Source of the DNA: Candidatus Woesearchaeota archaeon
Lineage (GTDB): Archaea > Nanobdellota > Nanobdellia > Pacearchaeales > GW2011-AR1
Length of the DNA stretch: 64,000 nt
Assembly (NCBI GenBank): GCA_964592915.1
Contig: CAZQGH010000002.1
Coordinates: forward strand, 6,435-70,434
Direction of reading: 5' to 3'
Below the pieces are notes generated by a model, which ran no database searches, had not been told where the DNA came from, and worked only from the letters and a program-made list of their open reading frames with translations. A program made the position numbers and the translations under genes. Positions 54,449 through 60,348 of the stretch are shown one piece after another (the first letter of the stretch is position 1; the number at the start of each line of letters is the position of its first letter).

Positions 54449-55099
54449 ATGTTTAATAAAAAGTGTACTTCTTGTGGTGAAGAATTAGAAAATGATTTTA
54501 GATTTTGTCCTTATTGTGGAGCAAGTTTAAAAAAAGAAGAAGATAGAAGAAACTATGGTTTATTAGGGAGAGATGATGATATTGATTTTAGAGATTTTAG
54601 ATTGCCTTTTGGTTTTAATGGAATCTTTAAAAAATTAGTAAAGGAGTTGAACAAACAAATAAAAAACTCAAATTCCGGTTTTGGACAAGACAATAATATG
54701 AATTTTAAAAAAGGGATAAGAATCAACATAAGTTCTTCTGGGGAAGAGCCGAAAATAAGAGTTAATGAAATAGGGAATAAGAAAAAAAATAAAAAAAAGT
54801 CAGCTGTTATCAAAAATAGAACAATATCTCCAGAAAAAATGAAAAAATTTAGGGAATTGCCGAAATTAGAACCAGAAACAAATGTGAGAAGGTTAAGCAA
54901 TAAACTGGTTTATGAAATTGATTTGCCTGGAGTTAATAGTCTAAAAGATGTTTTGATTAACAGATTGGAGAACAGTATTGAAATTAAAGCATTGTCAAAG
55001 AAAAAAGCTTTTTCAAAAATAATTCCTGTGAATTTGCCTTTAGTCAGGTATAATTTAGAAAAAGGAAAATTAATTCTTGAGTTAAAACCAAAAAATTAG
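54449..55099 (+). CDS. zinc-ribbon plus alpha-crystallin/Hsp20-like domain protein
   Basis: N-terminal CTSCGEEL...CPYCG. C-terminal YEIDLPGVNSLKDVLINRLENSIEIKA...GKLILELKPK. Confidence 0.4.
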   Translation: MFNKKCTSCGEELENDFRFCPYCGASLKKEEDRRNYGLLGRDDDIDFRDFRLPFGFNGIFKKLVKELNKQIKNSNSGFGQDNNMNFKKGIRINISSSGEEPKIRVNEIGNKKKNKKKSAVIKNRTISPEKMKKFRELPKLEPETNVRRLSNKLVYEIDLPGVNSLKDVLINRLENSIEIKALSKKKAFSKIIPVNLPLVRYNLEKGKLILELKPKN

Positions 55100-55143: not shown

Positions 55144-56442
55144 ATGGAACAAGTTCGAAAAGAGGACAATAGTAAAACTTTTTTAATCATTGGAATAATA
55201 ATTCTGCTGGTATTAATAATCATTACAGGAATTTATTTGTATACAAATTTTATATTACCATCTCCTCCTGTTCCTGAAATTGTTCCTTCAATTCATCAGT
55301 TTTATGGAAGATTGTTTTATGAAAATGGGAGTTTAATGCCAAATACTCGTTTATATGCCAAGGTTGATGGAGATATTGAAGAAAATGCAGATGTTCTAAC
55401 TGATTCAAACGGAGAGTATGGTTATACTCCTTTATTTTATGTTCAGAATGTTCCAAATGGTTCGACAATTGAGTTTTATGTTGAAGATACTGAAAATCTG
55501 AAAGTTGCTGAGTATAGTTTTTCTGAATTTGAATTAACTCAGCTGGATTTAACTTATGTCGAATCAGGATGTGGAAATAATGTAGTAGAAGCAGAAGAAG
55601 TTTGCGATGGGACTGACTTAAATGGAAAAAATTGCATAACTCAGGGATATGATTCTGGAACATTAAAGTGTTCATCAGATTGTTTAAGTTTTGATACTTC
55701 AGGATGTTCAGTTACTCAGGATGATGGAGGTGGAGGGGGGGGTGGAGGAGGAGGTGGAGGAGGTTCTGGAGCTGCAACATATACTATTTCATCTAGGCAA
55801 TGTGAGGAAGGATATACTAGGACATTAGAAGCAGGAGATAAAATCAGGATACCTTTTGATGGGATATATAAAAATGTTAAAGTCACTGATATAACATCAT
55901 CAAGTGTTGAGCTGATGGTTTATACTATACAGACTAGTCTTAATGCCGGGCAGACTAAAAGATATGATTTAGATATGAACAATGTAAGTGATTTGCAAGT
56001 AAAATTAAACGGAATCTCCAGTGATAATAACGCAAATATTGAAGTTACCTGTATAGAGGAGACTGTAACTACAACGGAGGTATGTATAGATACATGTGGT
56101 TCATTACAATATGAATGTGGTGTCCATACTATTTGCAGTGAAGAAGTAGATTGCGGAACATGCGAAGAAGGAATTTGTCAAGAAGGCAGATGTTTATTAG
56201 ATGAAGAATCACCCCAACAAGAAGACACAGGTTTGCTATTTAAAGTTGTTTTGATTTTAGTAATTGTATTAATAGTTGCTACTATAATCTTCTATGTTCT
56301 AAAATCCAGATTGACACATAAAGAAATTTCAAGTATTAAAGATATGATTACAAATAATAAAGAAACTGGGAAAAGCAAAACTGATAAATCATTAAAATCA
56401 AATAAAAAAAGCAGAAAAAAAAGCAGTAAAAATAAGAAATAA
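55144..56442 (+). CDS. membrane-anchored Cys-rich surface protein with poly-Gly linker (paralog A)
   Basis: N-terminal TM, beta-rich domain (FYGRLFYENGS...GEYGYTPLF), Cys motif CGNNVVEAEEVCDG, G15 tract, Cys-rich module, C-terminal TM and K-rich tail. Confidence 0.45.
   Translation: MEQVRKEDNSKTFLIIGIIILLVLIIITGIYLYTNFILPSPPVPEIVPSIHQFYGRLFYENGSLMPNTRLYAKVDGDIEENADVLTDSNGEYGYTPLFYVQNVPNGSTIEFYVEDTENLKVAEYSFSEFELTQLDLTYVESGCGNNVVEAEEVCDGTDLNGKNCITQGYDSGTLKCSSDCLSFDTSGCSVTQDDGGGGGGGGGGGGGSGAATYTISSRQCEEGYTRTLEAGDKIRIPFDGIYKNVKVTDITSSSVELMVYTIQTSLNAGQTKRYDLDMNNVSDLQVKLNGISSDNNANIEVTCIEETVTTTEVCIDTCGSLQYECGVHTICSEEVDCGTCEEGICQEGRCLLDEESPQQEDTGLLFKVVLILVIVLIVATIIFYVLKSRLTHKEISSIKDMITNNKETGKSKTDKSLKSNKKSRKKSSKNKK
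55733..55780 (+). repeat. G-rich homopolymeric/GGN tract encoding poly-Gly linker
   Basis: GGAGGTGGAGGGGGGGGTGGAGGAGGAGGTGGAGGAGG within an AT-rich genome. Slippage-prone. Confidence 0.6.
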
Positions 56443-56444
56443 TT

Positions 56445-57242
56445 TCAATTAAAAAAGTAGTTTATAGATTCATTTATATTTTCAACTTCTTTTATCTGAA
56501 TTCCTATTTCCTGACTTATATTCACTTTTTTAGGACGAGTTTCTGTTGAGCATATTTCAGTTGATCCAAATTCCTCGCAATTTTGAATAGTTTCATAAAT
56601 TACATCTCTGTTTTGCAATAGAGGGACAAGAAAAATCCCAGCTCCTGCATTTTTTGCAGCTTTTGCTTTAGAAATTATTTCTGATACTGGTCCAATAGAA
56701 CCATCACTATTTACAGAGCCTGTTATCATAACATTTTCATCTAGCGGAATTTCTAATATTGCTGCAATCGTAGCAATAGTTAAAGCAGCTCCTGCACTTG
56801 GGCCCCCTATAATTGAAGCATTTGCCTTTACTGTATATACAAAATCATATTCATCTAAATCATGGTTGGTTATATTTCCTGCTACCATTTTTGCAATCCT
56901 TATTGAATGCTGAGTATCTGCCCAGAATAATAAATTATCAATTTCTGTTAAAGTTCTTCCTGTTCCTTCTGTTTTTTCAACTTTTAAACTGGTGATTACT
57001 CCGTTGCCATCAGCATCAACTGCTGGCAAAGACATTGTTACTGATGTAGAATTATTAAACGAAATAAATTTTTCTCTGCTAATTTCCTGAATTATTTCTT
57101 CAGGAGGAATAAAAATTAAAAGCAGAAAATTTAAAAATAAAATTATAGATATGATGGTCACAAAAGCTTTCAAAATAAACTTCTTTTCTTGCTTCTTTTC
57201 CATGTTTAGATTATTTGAACTGTCTATATAAACTTTATCCAA
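56445..57242 (-). CDS. membrane-anchored stand-alone S16 (Lon-like) serine peptidase domain protein
   Basis: GGPSAGAALTIATIAAILEIPLDENVMITGSVNSDGSIGPVSEIISKAKAAKNAG matches the Lon proteolytic domain (Ser-Lys dyad). N-terminal TM, no AAA module. Confidence 0.6.
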   Translation of the reverse strand: MDKVYIDSSNNLNMEKKQEKKFILKAFVTIISIILFLNFLLLIFIPPEEIIQEISREKFISFNNSTSVTMSLPAVDADGNGVITSLKVEKTEGTGRTLTEIDNLLFWADTQHSIRIAKMVAGNITNHDLDEYDFVYTVKANASIIGGPSAGAALTIATIAAILEIPLDENVMITGSVNSDGSIGPVSEIISKAKAAKNAGAGIFLVPLLQNRDVIYETIQNCEEFGSTEICSTETRPKKVNISQEIGIQIKEVENINESINYFFN

Positions 57243-57316
57243 ATCCCACTACTTTTTTTAAGTATTTCAATACCATAAGGTTTTTATATTTGTAAACCTA
57301 GATTTAGCAAAAGAGG

Positions 57317-58144
57317 TTGAAGATGAAGAAGAAAGTTATCCTTATTTTATTATTCTTACTTGTATTTATGATAATCACCATTATCTTTTCAATTTTGTTT
57401 ATTCATGAGTATATATTATTTTTTTCTCCAAGAGCTTCGGCTTTAGATATTCCTGGCGAGGAAATCCCTCCTCCTTCAATTCAGAATTTTTATGGGGAGA
57501 TTTTGTGGCCTAATGGTTCTGTAGTTGATGATGTTCATCTTGTTGAAGCAAGAATTAATGGAGAGATTGTAGAAAACGCAACCAGTATTAATGGCAGTTA
57601 TGGGTATGCTCCTTTGTTTACTATCGAGGATGTACTTGAGGGAACTATAGTAAACTTTTATGTCGATTCTTTTTTTATAGCTGAAACAAAACATGTGAGT
57701 TTTGAGTTTACTAATTTAGATTTAATGCTGCCTGATGTTTGTGGAGATAATTATTGTACTGGAGAGGAGAATTGTGTTAATTGCAGAGAAGATTGTGGCG
57801 CATGCCCTGATGATGGCGGAGGAAGTTCCGGAGGAGGGGGAGGCTCTGGTATTAGTGGAACTGAAGATAATGAGAATCAAACTCAGGTAGTTGGAACTGG
57901 AAAAGCAATTAAAATTAATGATGAAGAGCAAAAAGAAGATGAAGAAGAAACAAAATCAGAAGAAAAACCAAAAACTGAAATAGGAGAGCAATCTCCAATA
58001 ACTGGTTTTACTATTGGCGATAACTTATTGAGAAGAGAAGTTTATATTCCCCTGATTCTGATATTAATGGTAGCTTTAATTTTAGCCATAGTTTCTATTA
58101 TCCGGTTTAAACATAAACATTTGGAAATTAGACCTTATAATTAA
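57317..58144 (+). CDS. membrane-anchored Cys-rich surface protein with Gly/Ser linker (paralog B)
   Basis: Same architecture as 55144..56442: FYGEILWPNGS...GSYGYAPLF, CGDNYCTGEENCVNCREDCGACPDDGGGSSGGGGGSG, C-terminal TM. Confidence 0.45.
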   Translation: MKMKKKVILILLFLLVFMIITIIFSILFIHEYILFFSPRASALDIPGEEIPPPSIQNFYGEILWPNGSVVDDVHLVEARINGEIVENATSINGSYGYAPLFTIEDVLEGTIVNFYVDSFFIAETKHVSFEFTNLDLMLPDVCGDNYCTGEENCVNCREDCGACPDDGGGSSGGGGGSGISGTEDNENQTQVVGTGKAIKINDEEQKEDEEETKSEEKPKTEIGEQSPITGFTIGDNLLRREVYIPLILILMVALILAIVSIIRFKHKHLEIRPYN

Positions 58145-58203
58145 TTTTACAAACAAGTTAGCTAAATTATCTCCCTATAAAATAATCTAGCTAACTTGTT
58201 TAA

Positions 58204-58278
58204 TGAGGCTGCACAGATTTGAACTGTGGACCCCTGCCTTATCAGAGCAGTGCTCTAACCTGGCTGAGCTACAGCCTC
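58204..58278 (-). tRNA. tRNA-Ile (anticodon GAT)
   Basis: Acceptor GAGGCTG/CAGCCTC perfect. D arm GCTC..GAGC. Anticodon stem CTGCT/GGCAG with loop CTGATAA. T arm CACAG-TTCAAAT-CTGTG. Discriminator A. Confidence 0.85.
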
Positions 58279-58440
58279 ATATTTGTATGTAGAGATATTT
58301 GATTTATAAAAGTTTTGAAAATTAAAATTTTATTAATTATCTTAGCTATCAATGTTAATGAAAAAAGAGTTGAGAAAAGATTTAATTGTTGTAGCATTAT
58401 CTTTTTTAATTAATCTTTCTAAGCAAAGTATACTGGTTAT

Positions 58441-58661: not shown

Positions 58662-59225
58662 ATGGCAAAAGGATTATACCATTATTTAAGGCAAGCATGG
58701 AAAAAACCAGATAAAAAGGTTTTAAGAGAAAGAATGATTGAGTGGAGAAAAGGTAAAGCTGCAGAAAAAGTCGAAAAACCTTTAAGATTAGACAGAGCTC
58801 GTTCATTAGGCTATAAAGCTAAAAAAGGTTTTGTAGTAGTGAGAGTGAAGCTAAAAAGAGGAGGAAGAAGCAAGACAAGGCCAAGAAAGGGAAGAAGAAG
58901 CAAAAGAATGACTTCCAGGAAAACCCTGAAGATGAGTTATAAATGGGTGGCAGAGCAGAGAGCACAGAGAAAATTCAAAAATCTGGAAGTATTAAATTCA
59001 TATAAAATTGGCAAGGATGGGAAAAATTATTTTTTTGAAGTTATAATGATTGATACATCAAAACCAGAAATAAAAAATGATAAACAAATTAATTGGATAT
59101 TGAATAAACATACAAAAAGAGCATTAAGGGGTTTAACATCCTCTGCAAAAAAATCAAGAGGACTAAGAAACAAAAAAACAAAAAATCGGCCTTCAGTAAG
59201 AGCCGGAAAAAGAAGAGGCAAATAA
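58662..59225 (+). CDS. rpl15e: 50S ribosomal protein L15e
   Basis: MAKGLYHYLRQAWKKP...VVRVKLKRGGR. 187 aa. Confidence 0.85.
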   Translation: MAKGLYHYLRQAWKKPDKKVLRERMIEWRKGKAAEKVEKPLRLDRARSLGYKAKKGFVVVRVKLKRGGRSKTRPRKGRRSKRMTSRKTLKMSYKWVAEQRAQRKFKNLEVLNSYKIGKDGKNYFFEVIMIDTSKPEIKNDKQINWILNKHTKRALRGLTSSAKKSRGLRNKKTKNRPSVRAGKRRGK

Positions 59226-59277: not shown

Positions 59278-60348
59278 ATGGAAGAGGAAAATCCTGAAAA
59301 AAACAATTCTGAACAAGAAACTAATAGGAATTCTGAAGAAGATAATAAAGAAGTTAAAGGAATAAAAAAAGAAAAAATTGTTGAAATTAAAAAACCTAGT
59401 AATGTAGATAAAGTAAAATCAAATCCGTGGATTCTTGCTACAATTGTTTTAGGTGTTTTATGTGTTGTTTTAATAATCATGCTTTTAAATGGGAGTATTG
59501 GAGTAACAGGAAATTTTGTTGCTGTAAATACTGCTGGTGAAGAAGCTGTTGATTTGATTGATAATGTTTTTGGAGTTGAGATGGAATATGTTAATGGTAA
59601 AGAAGTTGATGGTGTTTATCAGCTAGATTTCAAATTGGAAGATAATCCTGTAACTTTAAGAGCTACAAAAGACTTTTCATTTTTAATGCTGCCAGATGGC
59701 AGATGGCTAAGAACTGCAGATTATGATGAAGATGCAATAGCCCAGATTCAGGCTGCACAAGAACAAACAGAACAGCAAACTCCTCAAGAAATTCCTAAAT
59801 CTGATAATCCTCAAATTGAATTATTTATAATGACTCATTGTCCTTATGGAACTCAGGCAGAAAAAGGTTTTGTTCCAGCTATAAAAACTTTAGGAGATGA
59901 AGCTAATGCTAAAATAAGATTTGTTCATTACTTTATGCATGAGCCCGAAGAAGAAGAAACACTAAGGCAGGTGTGCATTAGAGAAGAACAGGAAGATAAA
60001 TGGTTAGATTATTTAGAGTGTTTCTTAGAAGACGGAGACTCAGCAAGATGCATTGAAGAAGTTAAAATAAATGAGGAAAATTTAAATGATTGTATTGAAA
60101 ACAGAGCTGATGGATATTATGGAGAAGATTCAGCATTAAGTGAGCAGTATGGTGTAAGAGGTTCACCAACTTTAGTAATTGATGGTGAAATAGTTTCATC
60201 TGGAAGAAGTCCTGATGCGATGCTGACAACTATATGCTCATCTTATAATACTGAGCCTGATGCTTGTTCAGCGGAATTAGCAAGTGAAAATCCAAGCCCA
60301 GGTTTTGGATATACTGGAAGCGGAACAGCTACAGATGCTCAATGTTAA
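59278..60348 (+). CDS. membrane-anchored protein with C-terminal thioredoxin/DsbA-like domain (single Cys in CPYG motif)
   Basis: TM after a K/E-rich N-terminus. FIMTHCPYGTQAE and SPTLVIDGEIV. Confidence 0.35.
   Translation: MEEENPEKNNSEQETNRNSEEDNKEVKGIKKEKIVEIKKPSNVDKVKSNPWILATIVLGVLCVVLIIMLLNGSIGVTGNFVAVNTAGEEAVDLIDNVFGVEMEYVNGKEVDGVYQLDFKLEDNPVTLRATKDFSFLMLPDGRWLRTADYDEDAIAQIQAAQEQTEQQTPQEIPKSDNPQIELFIMTHCPYGTQAEKGFVPAIKTLGDEANAKIRFVHYFMHEPEEEETLRQVCIREEQEDKWLDYLECFLEDGDSARCIEEVKINEENLNDCIENRADGYYGEDSALSEQYGVRGSPTLVIDGEIVSSGRSPDAMLTTICSSYNTEPDACSAELASENPSPGFGYTGSGTATDAQC

Follow-up and report, generated by a model that had tools for sequence, protein, structure and literature searches.

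The window analyzed here is a stretch of 64,000 nucleotides (nt) from a Candidatus Woesearchaeota archaeon (assembly GCA_964592915.1, contig CAZQGH010000002.1, positions 6,435 to 70,434 of the forward strand), and the subject of this analysis is a group of three adjacent genes that encode a membrane-tethered, Lon-type peptidase and the two surface proteins, A and B, on either side of it. The window has a G+C content of ~30% and carries housekeeping genes that were recognized by Pfam as encoding ribosomal protein L15e, an Rpb11-like RNA polymerase subunit, endonuclease V, and an Ssb-like protein with an oligonucleotide/oligosaccharide-binding (OB) fold. Protein A (55144..56442, plus strand; 432 amino acids [aa], 16 Cys) and protein B (57317..58144, plus strand; 275 aa, six Cys) are both predicted to be type I surface proteins, and both belong to a family of proteins, PHQFYG, defined by its N-terminal head domain (E values of 6e-29 for A and 4e-32 for B with a hidden Markov model [HMM] of this domain). 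The peptidase gene, hereafter S16, lies between them on the minus strand (56445..57242; 265 aa as listed). A tRNA-Ile (GAT) gene was located with ARAGORN at 58203..58279 (minus strand), 58 nt past B. The three open reading frames (ORFs), their strands, and the adjoining tRNA gene are as described in a first-pass annotation of the window, which had been made from the sequence letters alone.

The listed starts of S16 and B probably need adjustment. The S16 homologues begin at a position that matches the in-frame ATG at 57203, and a TATA-like box, TTTATATA, lies ~25 nt upstream of this codon (minus strand, 57232-57225). For these two reasons, ATG 57203 is probably the true start, giving a protein of 252 aa, and the listed TTG start is probably wrong. 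The TTTATATA box sits between the two candidate starts, which suggests a leaderless or near-leaderless transcript. B probably starts at ATG 57323, giving 273 aa, the same as database protein P0161, and a second TATA-like box, TTTATATT, is found ~30-35 nt upstream of the B start (plus strand, ~57284-57291). S16 and B are divergently oriented and separated by a gap of ~100 nt, and the region between them (57203..57322), in which both boxes were read directly from the sequence, is a putative double promoter. A and S16 are convergent, and their stop codons (TAA at 56440-56442 for A and TGA at 56445-56447 on the minus strand for S16) are only 2 nt apart. This leaves no room for a terminator, and the two transcripts therefore probably overlap.

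S16 is composed of a single N-terminal membrane helix (residues 22-45; 57108..57179, minus strand), identified by hydropathy and preceded by a KKQEKK stretch, and a Lon proteolytic domain (residues 72-265; 56448..57029, minus strand). The Pfam model Lon_C (PF05362) matched at 32.3 bits, against a curated cut-off of 21.1 (E 9e-8), and nothing else of substance was found in Pfam. Isolated Lon proteolytic domains of solved structure also matched, the best being 8dvh (E 2e-10), followed by the archaeal structures 1xhk and the 1z0b-1z0w series, and also by 3k1j. Searches of Pfam and NCBIfam gave no AAA+ or PDZ match, and a protein of only 252-265 aa has no room for an AAA+ module. The NCBIfam models for LonB, Lon, SepM, and BrxL covered only the protease part and scored far under their cut-offs: the LonB models reached 47-54 bits against cut-offs of 517-723 (TIGR00764, 47 against 517), and SepM_fam_S16 gave a partial match of 36.3 bits against a cut-off of 200 (E 3e-9). 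The first-pass description of the middle protein as an N-terminal helix followed by a Lon S16 domain, lacking AAA+, was thus borne out. Ser149 (in GGPSAGAA), Thr174, Lys192 (in SKAKAAK), and the pair Cys222/Cys231 are invariant in an alignment of 26 S16 sequences, and the Ser149 and Lys192 contexts align to the same motifs of 8dvh and 1xhk. Thr174 and Lys192 are 18 residues apart, a spacing equal to that of Thr704 and Lys722 in E. coli Lon. Judged by these residues, S16 looks like an active Ser-Lys endopeptidase.

A search of 5.8 billion proteins found 915 S16 homologues. The best 120 of these 915 are 196-292 aa long, are 52-72% identical to S16, and have the same architecture. Overall, hundreds of proteins with the length and architecture of S16 are 50-72% identical to it, and only the neighbours of S16 set it apart. 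Names attached to some of the homologues are 'S16 family serine protease' (NCBI) and 'predicted S18 family serine protease' (JGI), the latter being the COG1750 label. The family occurs in at least 424 species-level genomes of Pacearchaeota, Woesearchaeota, Aenigmatarchaeota, Nanoarchaeota, Micrarchaeota, and Altiarchaeales. The relatives of the window are metagenome-assembled Pacearchaeota, Woesearchaeota, Nanoarchaeota, and Aenigmatarchaeota, which marks its source as a DPANN-type archaeon. In length, architecture, and high identity, the window protein agrees with the 'S16 family serine protease' proteins of DPANN archaea, and it is a plain member of this annotated family, which nobody has characterised.

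One N-terminal hydrophobic helix is present in 118 of the best 120 homologues. Lys and Arg are more numerous in the 15 residues before this helix than in the 15 after it in 93 of the 118 (mean 4.1 versus 2.2), and acidic residues around the helix follow the reverse pattern. Because of this positive-inside pattern and the conserved Cys pair, S16 is predicted to have its N-terminus inside and its C-terminus outside, with the catalytic domain on the outer face of the membrane. This agrees with the first-pass proposal, which depended on the protease domain facing outward and not lying in the cytoplasm.

The nearest characterised analogues of S16 are the bacterial proteases YlbL and SepM. YlbL (DdcP) of Bacillus subtilis has no ATPase, is proposed to be extracellular, and removes YneA, a single-pass membrane protein with an extracellular domain (PMC6051672). 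YlbL is reported to lose its activity when it lacks the helix. Like YlbL and the SepM protease of Streptococcus, S16 has an N-terminal helix followed by a Lon domain with a Ser-Lys dyad, has no AAA+ module, and has a catalytic domain that is proposed to be extracellular. YlbL and SepM have a PDZ domain, whereas S16 lacks one, is archaeal, and has the additional conserved Cys pair. S16 would thus work like these proteins without being a member of their family, as judged from the missing PDZ domain and the low SepM score given above. Among solved proteolytic domains, those of the archaeal LonB type are the closest to that of S16, and LonB shares with S16 the membrane association and the catalytic dyad. 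However, LonB has an AAA+ module with inserted membrane helices and faces the cytoplasm, whereas S16 has the protease domain only and is predicted to face outward. LonC of Meiothermus taiwanensis (MtaLonC) is a Lon-family protease that is independent of ATP hydrolysis (PMC3391209), as S16, also of the Lon family, is proposed to be. LonC differs in being soluble and cytoplasmic: it has ~700 aa, its N-terminal region is a degenerate AAA-like one, and it lacks a membrane segment, whereas S16 has ~250 aa and is tethered.

The proteins encoded on either side of S16 are related to each other. BLASTP aligned A and B with 36% identity over ~143 aa (E 6e-21), a region that spans the N-terminal hydrophobic segment, the FYG...YGY...PLF domain, and the first Cys. 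Both also contain a Cys module and a tract of Gly or Gly/Ser, and both end in a membrane helix with a basic tail. Their sequences thus identify A and B as true paralogues with the same architecture, as the first-pass annotation had it. Neither protein matched any Pfam or NCBIfam family above noise.

Protein A begins with a hydrophobic segment (residues 13-33; 55180..55242; hydropathy 3.2, with Lys/Arg on its N-terminal side), which may be a signal peptide or a signal anchor. It is followed by the PHQFYG head domain (residues 48-140; 55285..55563) and a six-Cys module of the form CGNN..E..CDG..C..C..C..C (residues 143-188; 55570..55707). This module is 56-63% identical to repeated modules in P0121 and P0122, and it matched no curated family in Pfam or NCBIfam at E <= 0.1, including the Myxococcus-type cysteine-rich repeat or DUF4215, which we had presumed it to resemble. 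The adjacent Gly tract (residues 195-209; 55726..55770) is presumably a flexible hinge. The first-pass annotation gave it as 15 consecutive Gly; the tract is real, and its codons, read directly, encode 13 consecutive Gly and then Ser-Gly. The beta-rich middle region (residues 210-305; 55771..56058) is absent from B, was modelled by AlphaFold2 as strands with a predicted local distance difference test (pLDDT) of 31-56, and has no family match. A second Cys-rich module (residues 314-350; 56083..56193) lies beside the anchor. The C-terminal region (56224..56439) contains a degenerate TGLLF motif, a helix (residues 366-386; hydropathy 3.45), and a Lys/Ser-rich tail of 46 aa (residues 387-432). The AlphaFold2 model of full-length A had a pLDDT of 58 and was poor outside the head, and the middle region and second Cys module received no fold assignment. 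A PDB sequence search with A returned only the linkers of single-chain variable fragments and other poly-Gly artefacts, which were discarded.

In protein B, the corresponding parts on the plus strand are a hydrophobic segment (residues 7-29), the PHQFYG head domain (residues 53-140; 57473..57736; BLASTP to A and HMM), the Cys module CGDNYCTGEENCVNCREDCGAC and the Gly/Ser tract GGGSSGGGGGSG (residues 142-163 and 167-178; 57740..57850), and a C-terminal region (57995..58141) with the motif PITGF (residues 227-231), a helix (residues 244-262), and a basic tail that includes RFKHKH (residues 263-275). An HMM of the C-terminal signal matched this region with E 3e-6. B also has an acidic spacer. Modules of the B type, CGDxxCxxGExCxxCxxDCGxC, are also present in P0124-P0126, P0138, and P0150.

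The N-terminal hydrophobic segments of A and B are longer than those of typical family members, and an ASA motif follows the segment in B, with none following that in A. The first-pass annotation described them as N-terminal transmembrane anchors. The hydrophobic segments are indeed there; as most relatives have, immediately ahead of VPGIPHQFYG, a short signal peptide that looks cleavable, they are better read as signal peptides or signal anchors, and mature A and B would then be type I proteins anchored at the C-terminus.

Word-indexed searches with A and with an alignment of the head domain found only five and three proteins, respectively, which already shared the whole architecture, and an exhaustive HMMER search with a head profile was required to reveal the PHQFYG family. 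At E <= 1e-3 it comprises 2,223 cluster representatives, of which 602 reach E <= 1e-10. Most members are 200-450 aa long, with the domain at residues ~20-120, right after a signal peptide ending ...A↓(V)PG(I/V)PHQFYG. An N-terminal hydrophobic segment is present in 136 of the 147 representatives that were analyzed further, a C-terminal helix in 107, and a Gly/Ser run of at least six residues in 87. Members that carry a name are 'hypothetical protein' entries from Aenigmatarchaeota and metagenome bins, and no model for the head domain was found when 40 members were compared with Pfam and NCBIfam. A and B are typical fast-evolving DPANN surface proteins from a large family that has no curated model. 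Tandem head-domain paralogues were seen in 10 of 79 metagenome loci, indicating that local duplication is common in this family. Some members carry many copies of the head in one chain, with up to 17 in tandem (P0135, 3,464 aa).

The head alone, modelled by AlphaFold2 from a 33-sequence alignment, is an eight-strand beta sandwich (pLDDT 93.2, predicted template modelling score 0.84). Foldseek matched this model to PDB structures with E values of 5e-5 to 1e-3, template modelling (TM) scores of 0.5-0.58, and a probability of ~1.0. The targets were the carboxypeptidase-like domain of teneurin, the C-terminal transthyretin-like domains of carboxypeptidases D, M, and N, UafA, TIE, the BcpA pilin, and transthyretins. 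According to this model, the head has a prealbumin/transthyretin-like beta-sandwich fold, the same class as the carboxypeptidase-regulatory/transthyretin domains and the Cna-B domains of adhesins and pilins, and the first-pass guess of a carboxypeptidase-regulatory or Cna-B fold was right at the fold level. The head differs from carboxypeptidase-regulatory domains in that its mature N-terminus bears an invariant signature of its own, PHQFYG...YGY, and in that it does not match them at the sequence level: CarboxypepD_reg (PF13620) did not match A, B, or their close relatives at E <= 0.1, and the one match among the 40 family members lay elsewhere in the protein.

Many PHQFYG proteins end in a recognizable C-terminal pattern. 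TG[FMLRWY] occurs within 30 residues before the C-terminal helix in 58 of the 110 members with a helix, against a background of 3%. Anchored on the motif, the consensus is [G/F][G/F]xx-I-T-G-[F/A/L]-[F/V], which usually lies 9-13 residues before the helix and has Lys or Arg after it. The motif is PITGF in B and SITGF in the orthologue of B at locus L163, and A has only DTGLLF; the ITGF motif is lacking in A and in the proteins found in the equivalent position at loci L163 and L166. Secreted proteins with LPXTG, PGF-CTERM, or Loki-CTERM signals have the same layout at their extreme C-terminus: a short motif comes first, then a hydrophobic helix, and then a basic tail. It differs from these known tripartite signals in that the PHQFYG-family motif is ITGF-like and lies ~10 residues from the helix, and the 46-aa tail of A is long for such a signal. 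The NCBIfam CTERM models (LPXTG, PGF-CTERM, Loki-CTERM, GVDTG, and others) scored at best 13-16 bits, all below cut-off, and aligned to the helix and tail only. The ITGF motif, helix, and basic tail are presented here as a candidate new sorting, shedding, or anchoring signal.

The gene neighbourhood of S16 was compared by scanning species-representative genomes with the S16 alignment, which gave 80 loci of up to 7 kb on each side (~1 Mb in total), and their ORFs were analyzed by BLAST and HMM searches. Three neighbours, all of the housekeeping kind, recurred: a zinc-ribbon/Hsp20-like gene (26 loci), an endonuclease V gene (24 loci), and the gene for L15e (17 loci), in the recurrent order L15e(-) / S16(+) / zinc-ribbon/Hsp20-like(-) / endonuclease V(+). 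In the window, the zinc-ribbon/Hsp20-like gene (54449..55099, plus strand; Pfam Zn_Ribbon_1 and a weak NCBIfam Hsp20 match) bounds the slot occupied by A, and the L15e gene (58662..59225, plus strand; Pfam E 2e-61) bounds the slot occupied by B. The tRNA-Ile (GAT) gene is directly upstream of S16, on the same strand, at L170 (4824-4900), L032 (6731-6806), and L055 (2773-2848), and B therefore sits inside an ancestral junction: in the window it is wedged, in the opposite orientation, between tRNA-Ile and S16, and A lies between S16 and the zinc-ribbon gene. The ancestral context is thus L15e / tRNA-Ile / S16 / zinc-ribbon/Hsp20-like / endonuclease V, with A and B filling two gaps, and the tRNA/S16 junction looks like an insertion site from these comparisons.

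A and B are both present only in the window and at L163. The S16 protein of L163, P0003, is 72% identical to that of the window and is found on 20 contigs. The L163 locus contains L15e(-), a 257-aa orthologue of B(-), S16(+), a 294-aa orthologue of A(-), the zinc-ribbon/Hsp20-like gene(-), and endonuclease V(+). The B orthologue is 37% identical to B over the full length (E 6e-39), and the A orthologue is 38% identical to A in the head and 45% in the second Cys module. The surrounding genes are likewise conserved between the window and L163, with identities of 68% for L15e, 59% for endonuclease V, and 46% each for a DsbA-like protein and the zinc-ribbon/Hsp20-like protein. At L166 (P0004), the B slot is empty and the A slot holds a 911-aa protein with an A-like C-terminal anchor. 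A neighbour-joining tree of S16 domains places the window, L163, and L166 in one clade. Just outside this clade, three loci whose S16 is 64-66% identical to that of the window have unrelated cytoplasmic genes in the S16/zinc-ribbon gap (L168 and L169) or nothing there (L170). The S16/zinc-ribbon gap is thus a variable slot.

The ectodomain of the 911-aa protein at L166 (2011-4746, minus strand) resembles heparinase II/III (NCBIfam HepB, E 3e-6). It is joined to a C-terminal part like that of A, with a Cys module, a helix, and a basic tail, and the C-terminus matches the second Cys module of A with E 1e-9. Ectodomains of different kinds appear to have been exchanged on a stalk and anchor that are conserved.

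Beyond this clade, S16 and the surface proteins rarely meet. Among the 80 S16 loci, the head domain of A and B was found at one, L068, where S16 is directly preceded by the gene for a 391-aa member, and no comparable neighbour exists in 76 of 80 other S16 genomes. The reverse comparison used 79 metagenome loci (487 kb) that were found with 10 closer head sequences and are biased to the canonical PG[VI]PHQFY subfamily, and it gave an S16-like gene near a head domain at one locus, L085. The first-pass annotation had proposed a conserved module for the processing or maturation of surface proteins, and these two counts do not uphold it. It had also held that a lack of co-occurrence in other genomes would speak against the module; the actual distribution lies in between, with the full arrangement at L163 only and part of it at L166. 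As the exact A/S16/B order is limited to the closest relative and is partly kept at L166, the arrangement fits inherited local synteny.

At L085 (535-4172), a distant S16-like gene (260 aa) lies between genes for a MoxR-type AAA ATPase and a DUF58-like protein, all on one strand, with the PHQFYG gene just upstream; this is a different context for a protease made of a helix and Lon_C. Other exported proteins were seen beside S16. In one Pacearchaeota clade, a type I protein of 570-593 aa is encoded immediately before S16 on the same strand (L002 5198-6910, L010 5003-6736, L015 5001-6737, L018 5102-6883, and L027 4990-6735). These proteins have 20-21 Cys, many N-x-S/T sequons, and a weak CarboxypepD_reg match, and could be a major surface glycoprotein. 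They matched no NCBIfam family, the PACE-CTERM S-layer model included, and they were rejected as relatives of A and B (hhalign probability 0.4%). At L004 (5152-6558, minus strand), the gene beside S16 encodes a protein of 468 aa in which a signal peptide and a Cys-rich ectodomain are oddly combined with a membrane helix in mid-protein, a coiled-coil-like stretch rich in Lys and Glu, and a C-terminal motif that looks like an HNH nuclease. At L009 (4016-4450), a 144-aa protein two genes upstream of S16 begins with MKGRKSQAAMEFLMTYGWAILV, which resembles an archaeal type IV pilin-like (class III) signal peptide, and it is one of several exported proteins encoded in a row, with S16 as the last. 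In the window itself, a membrane-anchored DsbA/thioredoxin-like protein with nine Cys is encoded two genes from B (59278-60348, plus strand) and is conserved in the sister locus L163 (2960-3922). Such a protein would suit the formation of disulfides outside the cytoplasm in the many Cys-rich surface proteins.

Taking these results together, we think it probable that S16 is a conserved, outward-facing, ATP-independent general protease of the Lon type and that A and B are lineage-specific surface paralogues in permissive gaps beside it, an arrangement inherited within a narrow clade. The helix of S16 would tether an ATP-independent Ser-Lys endopeptidase whose catalytic domain lies on the outer membrane face. 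By analogy with YlbL and SepM, it would most likely be a general protease that acts close to the membrane on exported and membrane proteins, in trimming, shedding, or clearance. A and B would most likely be adhesin- or ligand-binding-type proteins held off the membrane, each with a signal peptide ahead of a transthyretin-like binding head, spacers rich in disulfides, a Gly/Ser hinge, an ITGF-like juxtamembrane motif, a helix, and a basic cytoplasmic tail. Their genes may have been inserted into the tRNA-Ile/S16 and S16/zinc-ribbon-Hsp20 gaps in an ancestor of the window organism and one sister lineage. Several observations weigh against this explanation. Literature searches on COG1750, on archaeal serine proteases, and on archaeal membrane proteases of the Lon-like type turned up no experimental study of the DPANN S16 family, and the role of general protease is therefore assigned by analogy only. 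A and B are the sole proteins of their architecture among the 78 ORFs of the window, which was chosen for this pattern, so that the figure is not a probability. All five PHQFYG genes in the ~1 Mb of S16 loci adjoin S16 (two in the window, two at L163, and one at L068), against none among ~700 non-adjacent genes. The A/B pair is kept on both sides of S16 at L163, in the same order and orientation, despite divergence to ~37% identity. Strictly defined type I proteins are more frequent beside S16 (8 of 138 adjoining proteins versus 5 of 692 elsewhere, p = 3e-4), with five of the eight coming from the single orthologous group of 570-593 aa. As this one group drives the enrichment, it was rejected as a general signal, and the broader class of exported proteins was not enriched beside S16 (18 of 138 versus 67 of 692, p = 0.22, or 0.62 after collapsing the 570-593-aa group). 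These points leave room for a real functional link in the clade of the window, L163, and L166.

Such a link might mean that S16 specifically matures or sheds A and B, for example by a cut near the membrane that releases or activates their ectodomains, with the trio kept together for co-regulation. Besides the conserved order and the adjacency just described, the latter recurring in three lineages, this would fit the PHQFYG gene directly upstream of S16 at L068, the surface protein with an A-like anchor retained in the A slot of L166, the intergenic region with two TATA-like boxes that S16 shares with B, and the predicted location of the protease domain and the A and B juxtamembrane segments close together on the same side of the membrane. 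However, 76 of 80 other S16 loci have no such neighbour, the 64-66% identical relatives of S16 have cytoplasmic genes or nothing in the slots, and only 1 of the 79 head-domain loci has S16 nearby. Furthermore, the whole neighbourhood (OB-fold protein, DsbA-like protein, L15e ... endonuclease V) is equally conserved between the window and L163, so retention of the trio needs no selection, and A and the A-slot proteins of L163 and L166 lack the ITGF motif. The C-terminal-signal HMM found seven proteins in the S16 loci, four of them adjoining S16; counted as independent events, about three of six are adjacent, which is not significant. We therefore consider a dedicated processing trio unlikely. 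That the ITGF C-terminus is an undescribed archaeal sorting or shedding signal cut by the outward-facing S16 peptidase, in a Ser-Lys 'sortase-like' system unrelated to archaeosortases, is a proposal we would hold only very tentatively; S16 occurs throughout the DPANN lineages that have such C-termini, and in a few of them it adjoins a gene of this type. In its broader form, S16 would recognize the motif, helix, and basic tail genome-wide, and not only in A and B, as a signal of the LPXTG/PGF-CTERM type. The conserved tripartite C-terminus of the PHQFYG family, the lack of any known CTERM model above cut-off, and the predicted membrane-proximal, outward-facing position of S16 speak for it. We judge it highly doubtful, as the motif is absent from A and several other S16-adjacent proteins, and the 79 head-domain loci contain 62 C-terminal-signal proteins with one S16 nearby. 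The known enzymes of protein sorting, moreover, are cysteine transpeptidases or rhombosortases and not Ser-Lys proteases of the Lon type.

Two further possibilities concern S16 alone. In reduced genomes, it may take the place of the SppA-type signal peptide peptidases, which are also Ser-Lys enzymes, and break down signal peptides and the membrane stubs that remain after secretion. The Ser-Lys dyad, the single tether, and the predicted outward-facing domain would suit this task, and S16 is near-universal in small DPANN genomes that export many proteins. As a specific assignment this is distinctly improbable, and it is a special case of the general-protease explanation rather than opposed to it. 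Alternatively, S16 and the zinc-ribbon/Hsp20-like protein might form a functional unit in proteostasis, given that the zinc-ribbon/Hsp20-like gene is the most frequent and most conserved neighbour of S16 and is usually convergent with it. Against this, the Hsp20 match is weak (E 1.4e-3, 18 bits against a cut-off of 140), the two genes lie on opposite strands and are often split by unrelated inserts, and the protein has no membrane segment, which would put it on the other side of the membrane from the S16 domain. We regard such a pair as extremely unlikely.

The two families described here bear on organisms whose cell-surface biology is almost unexplored. With a curated model of the PHQFYG head, thousands of archaeal surface proteins now called 'hypothetical' would be annotated, and the ITGF motif provides a concrete, testable candidate for a processing or anchoring signal in them. 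If S16 does act on this signal, it would represent a new enzyme class in archaeal protein sorting and would give a handle on how episymbiotic archaea display or release the proteins that contact their hosts.

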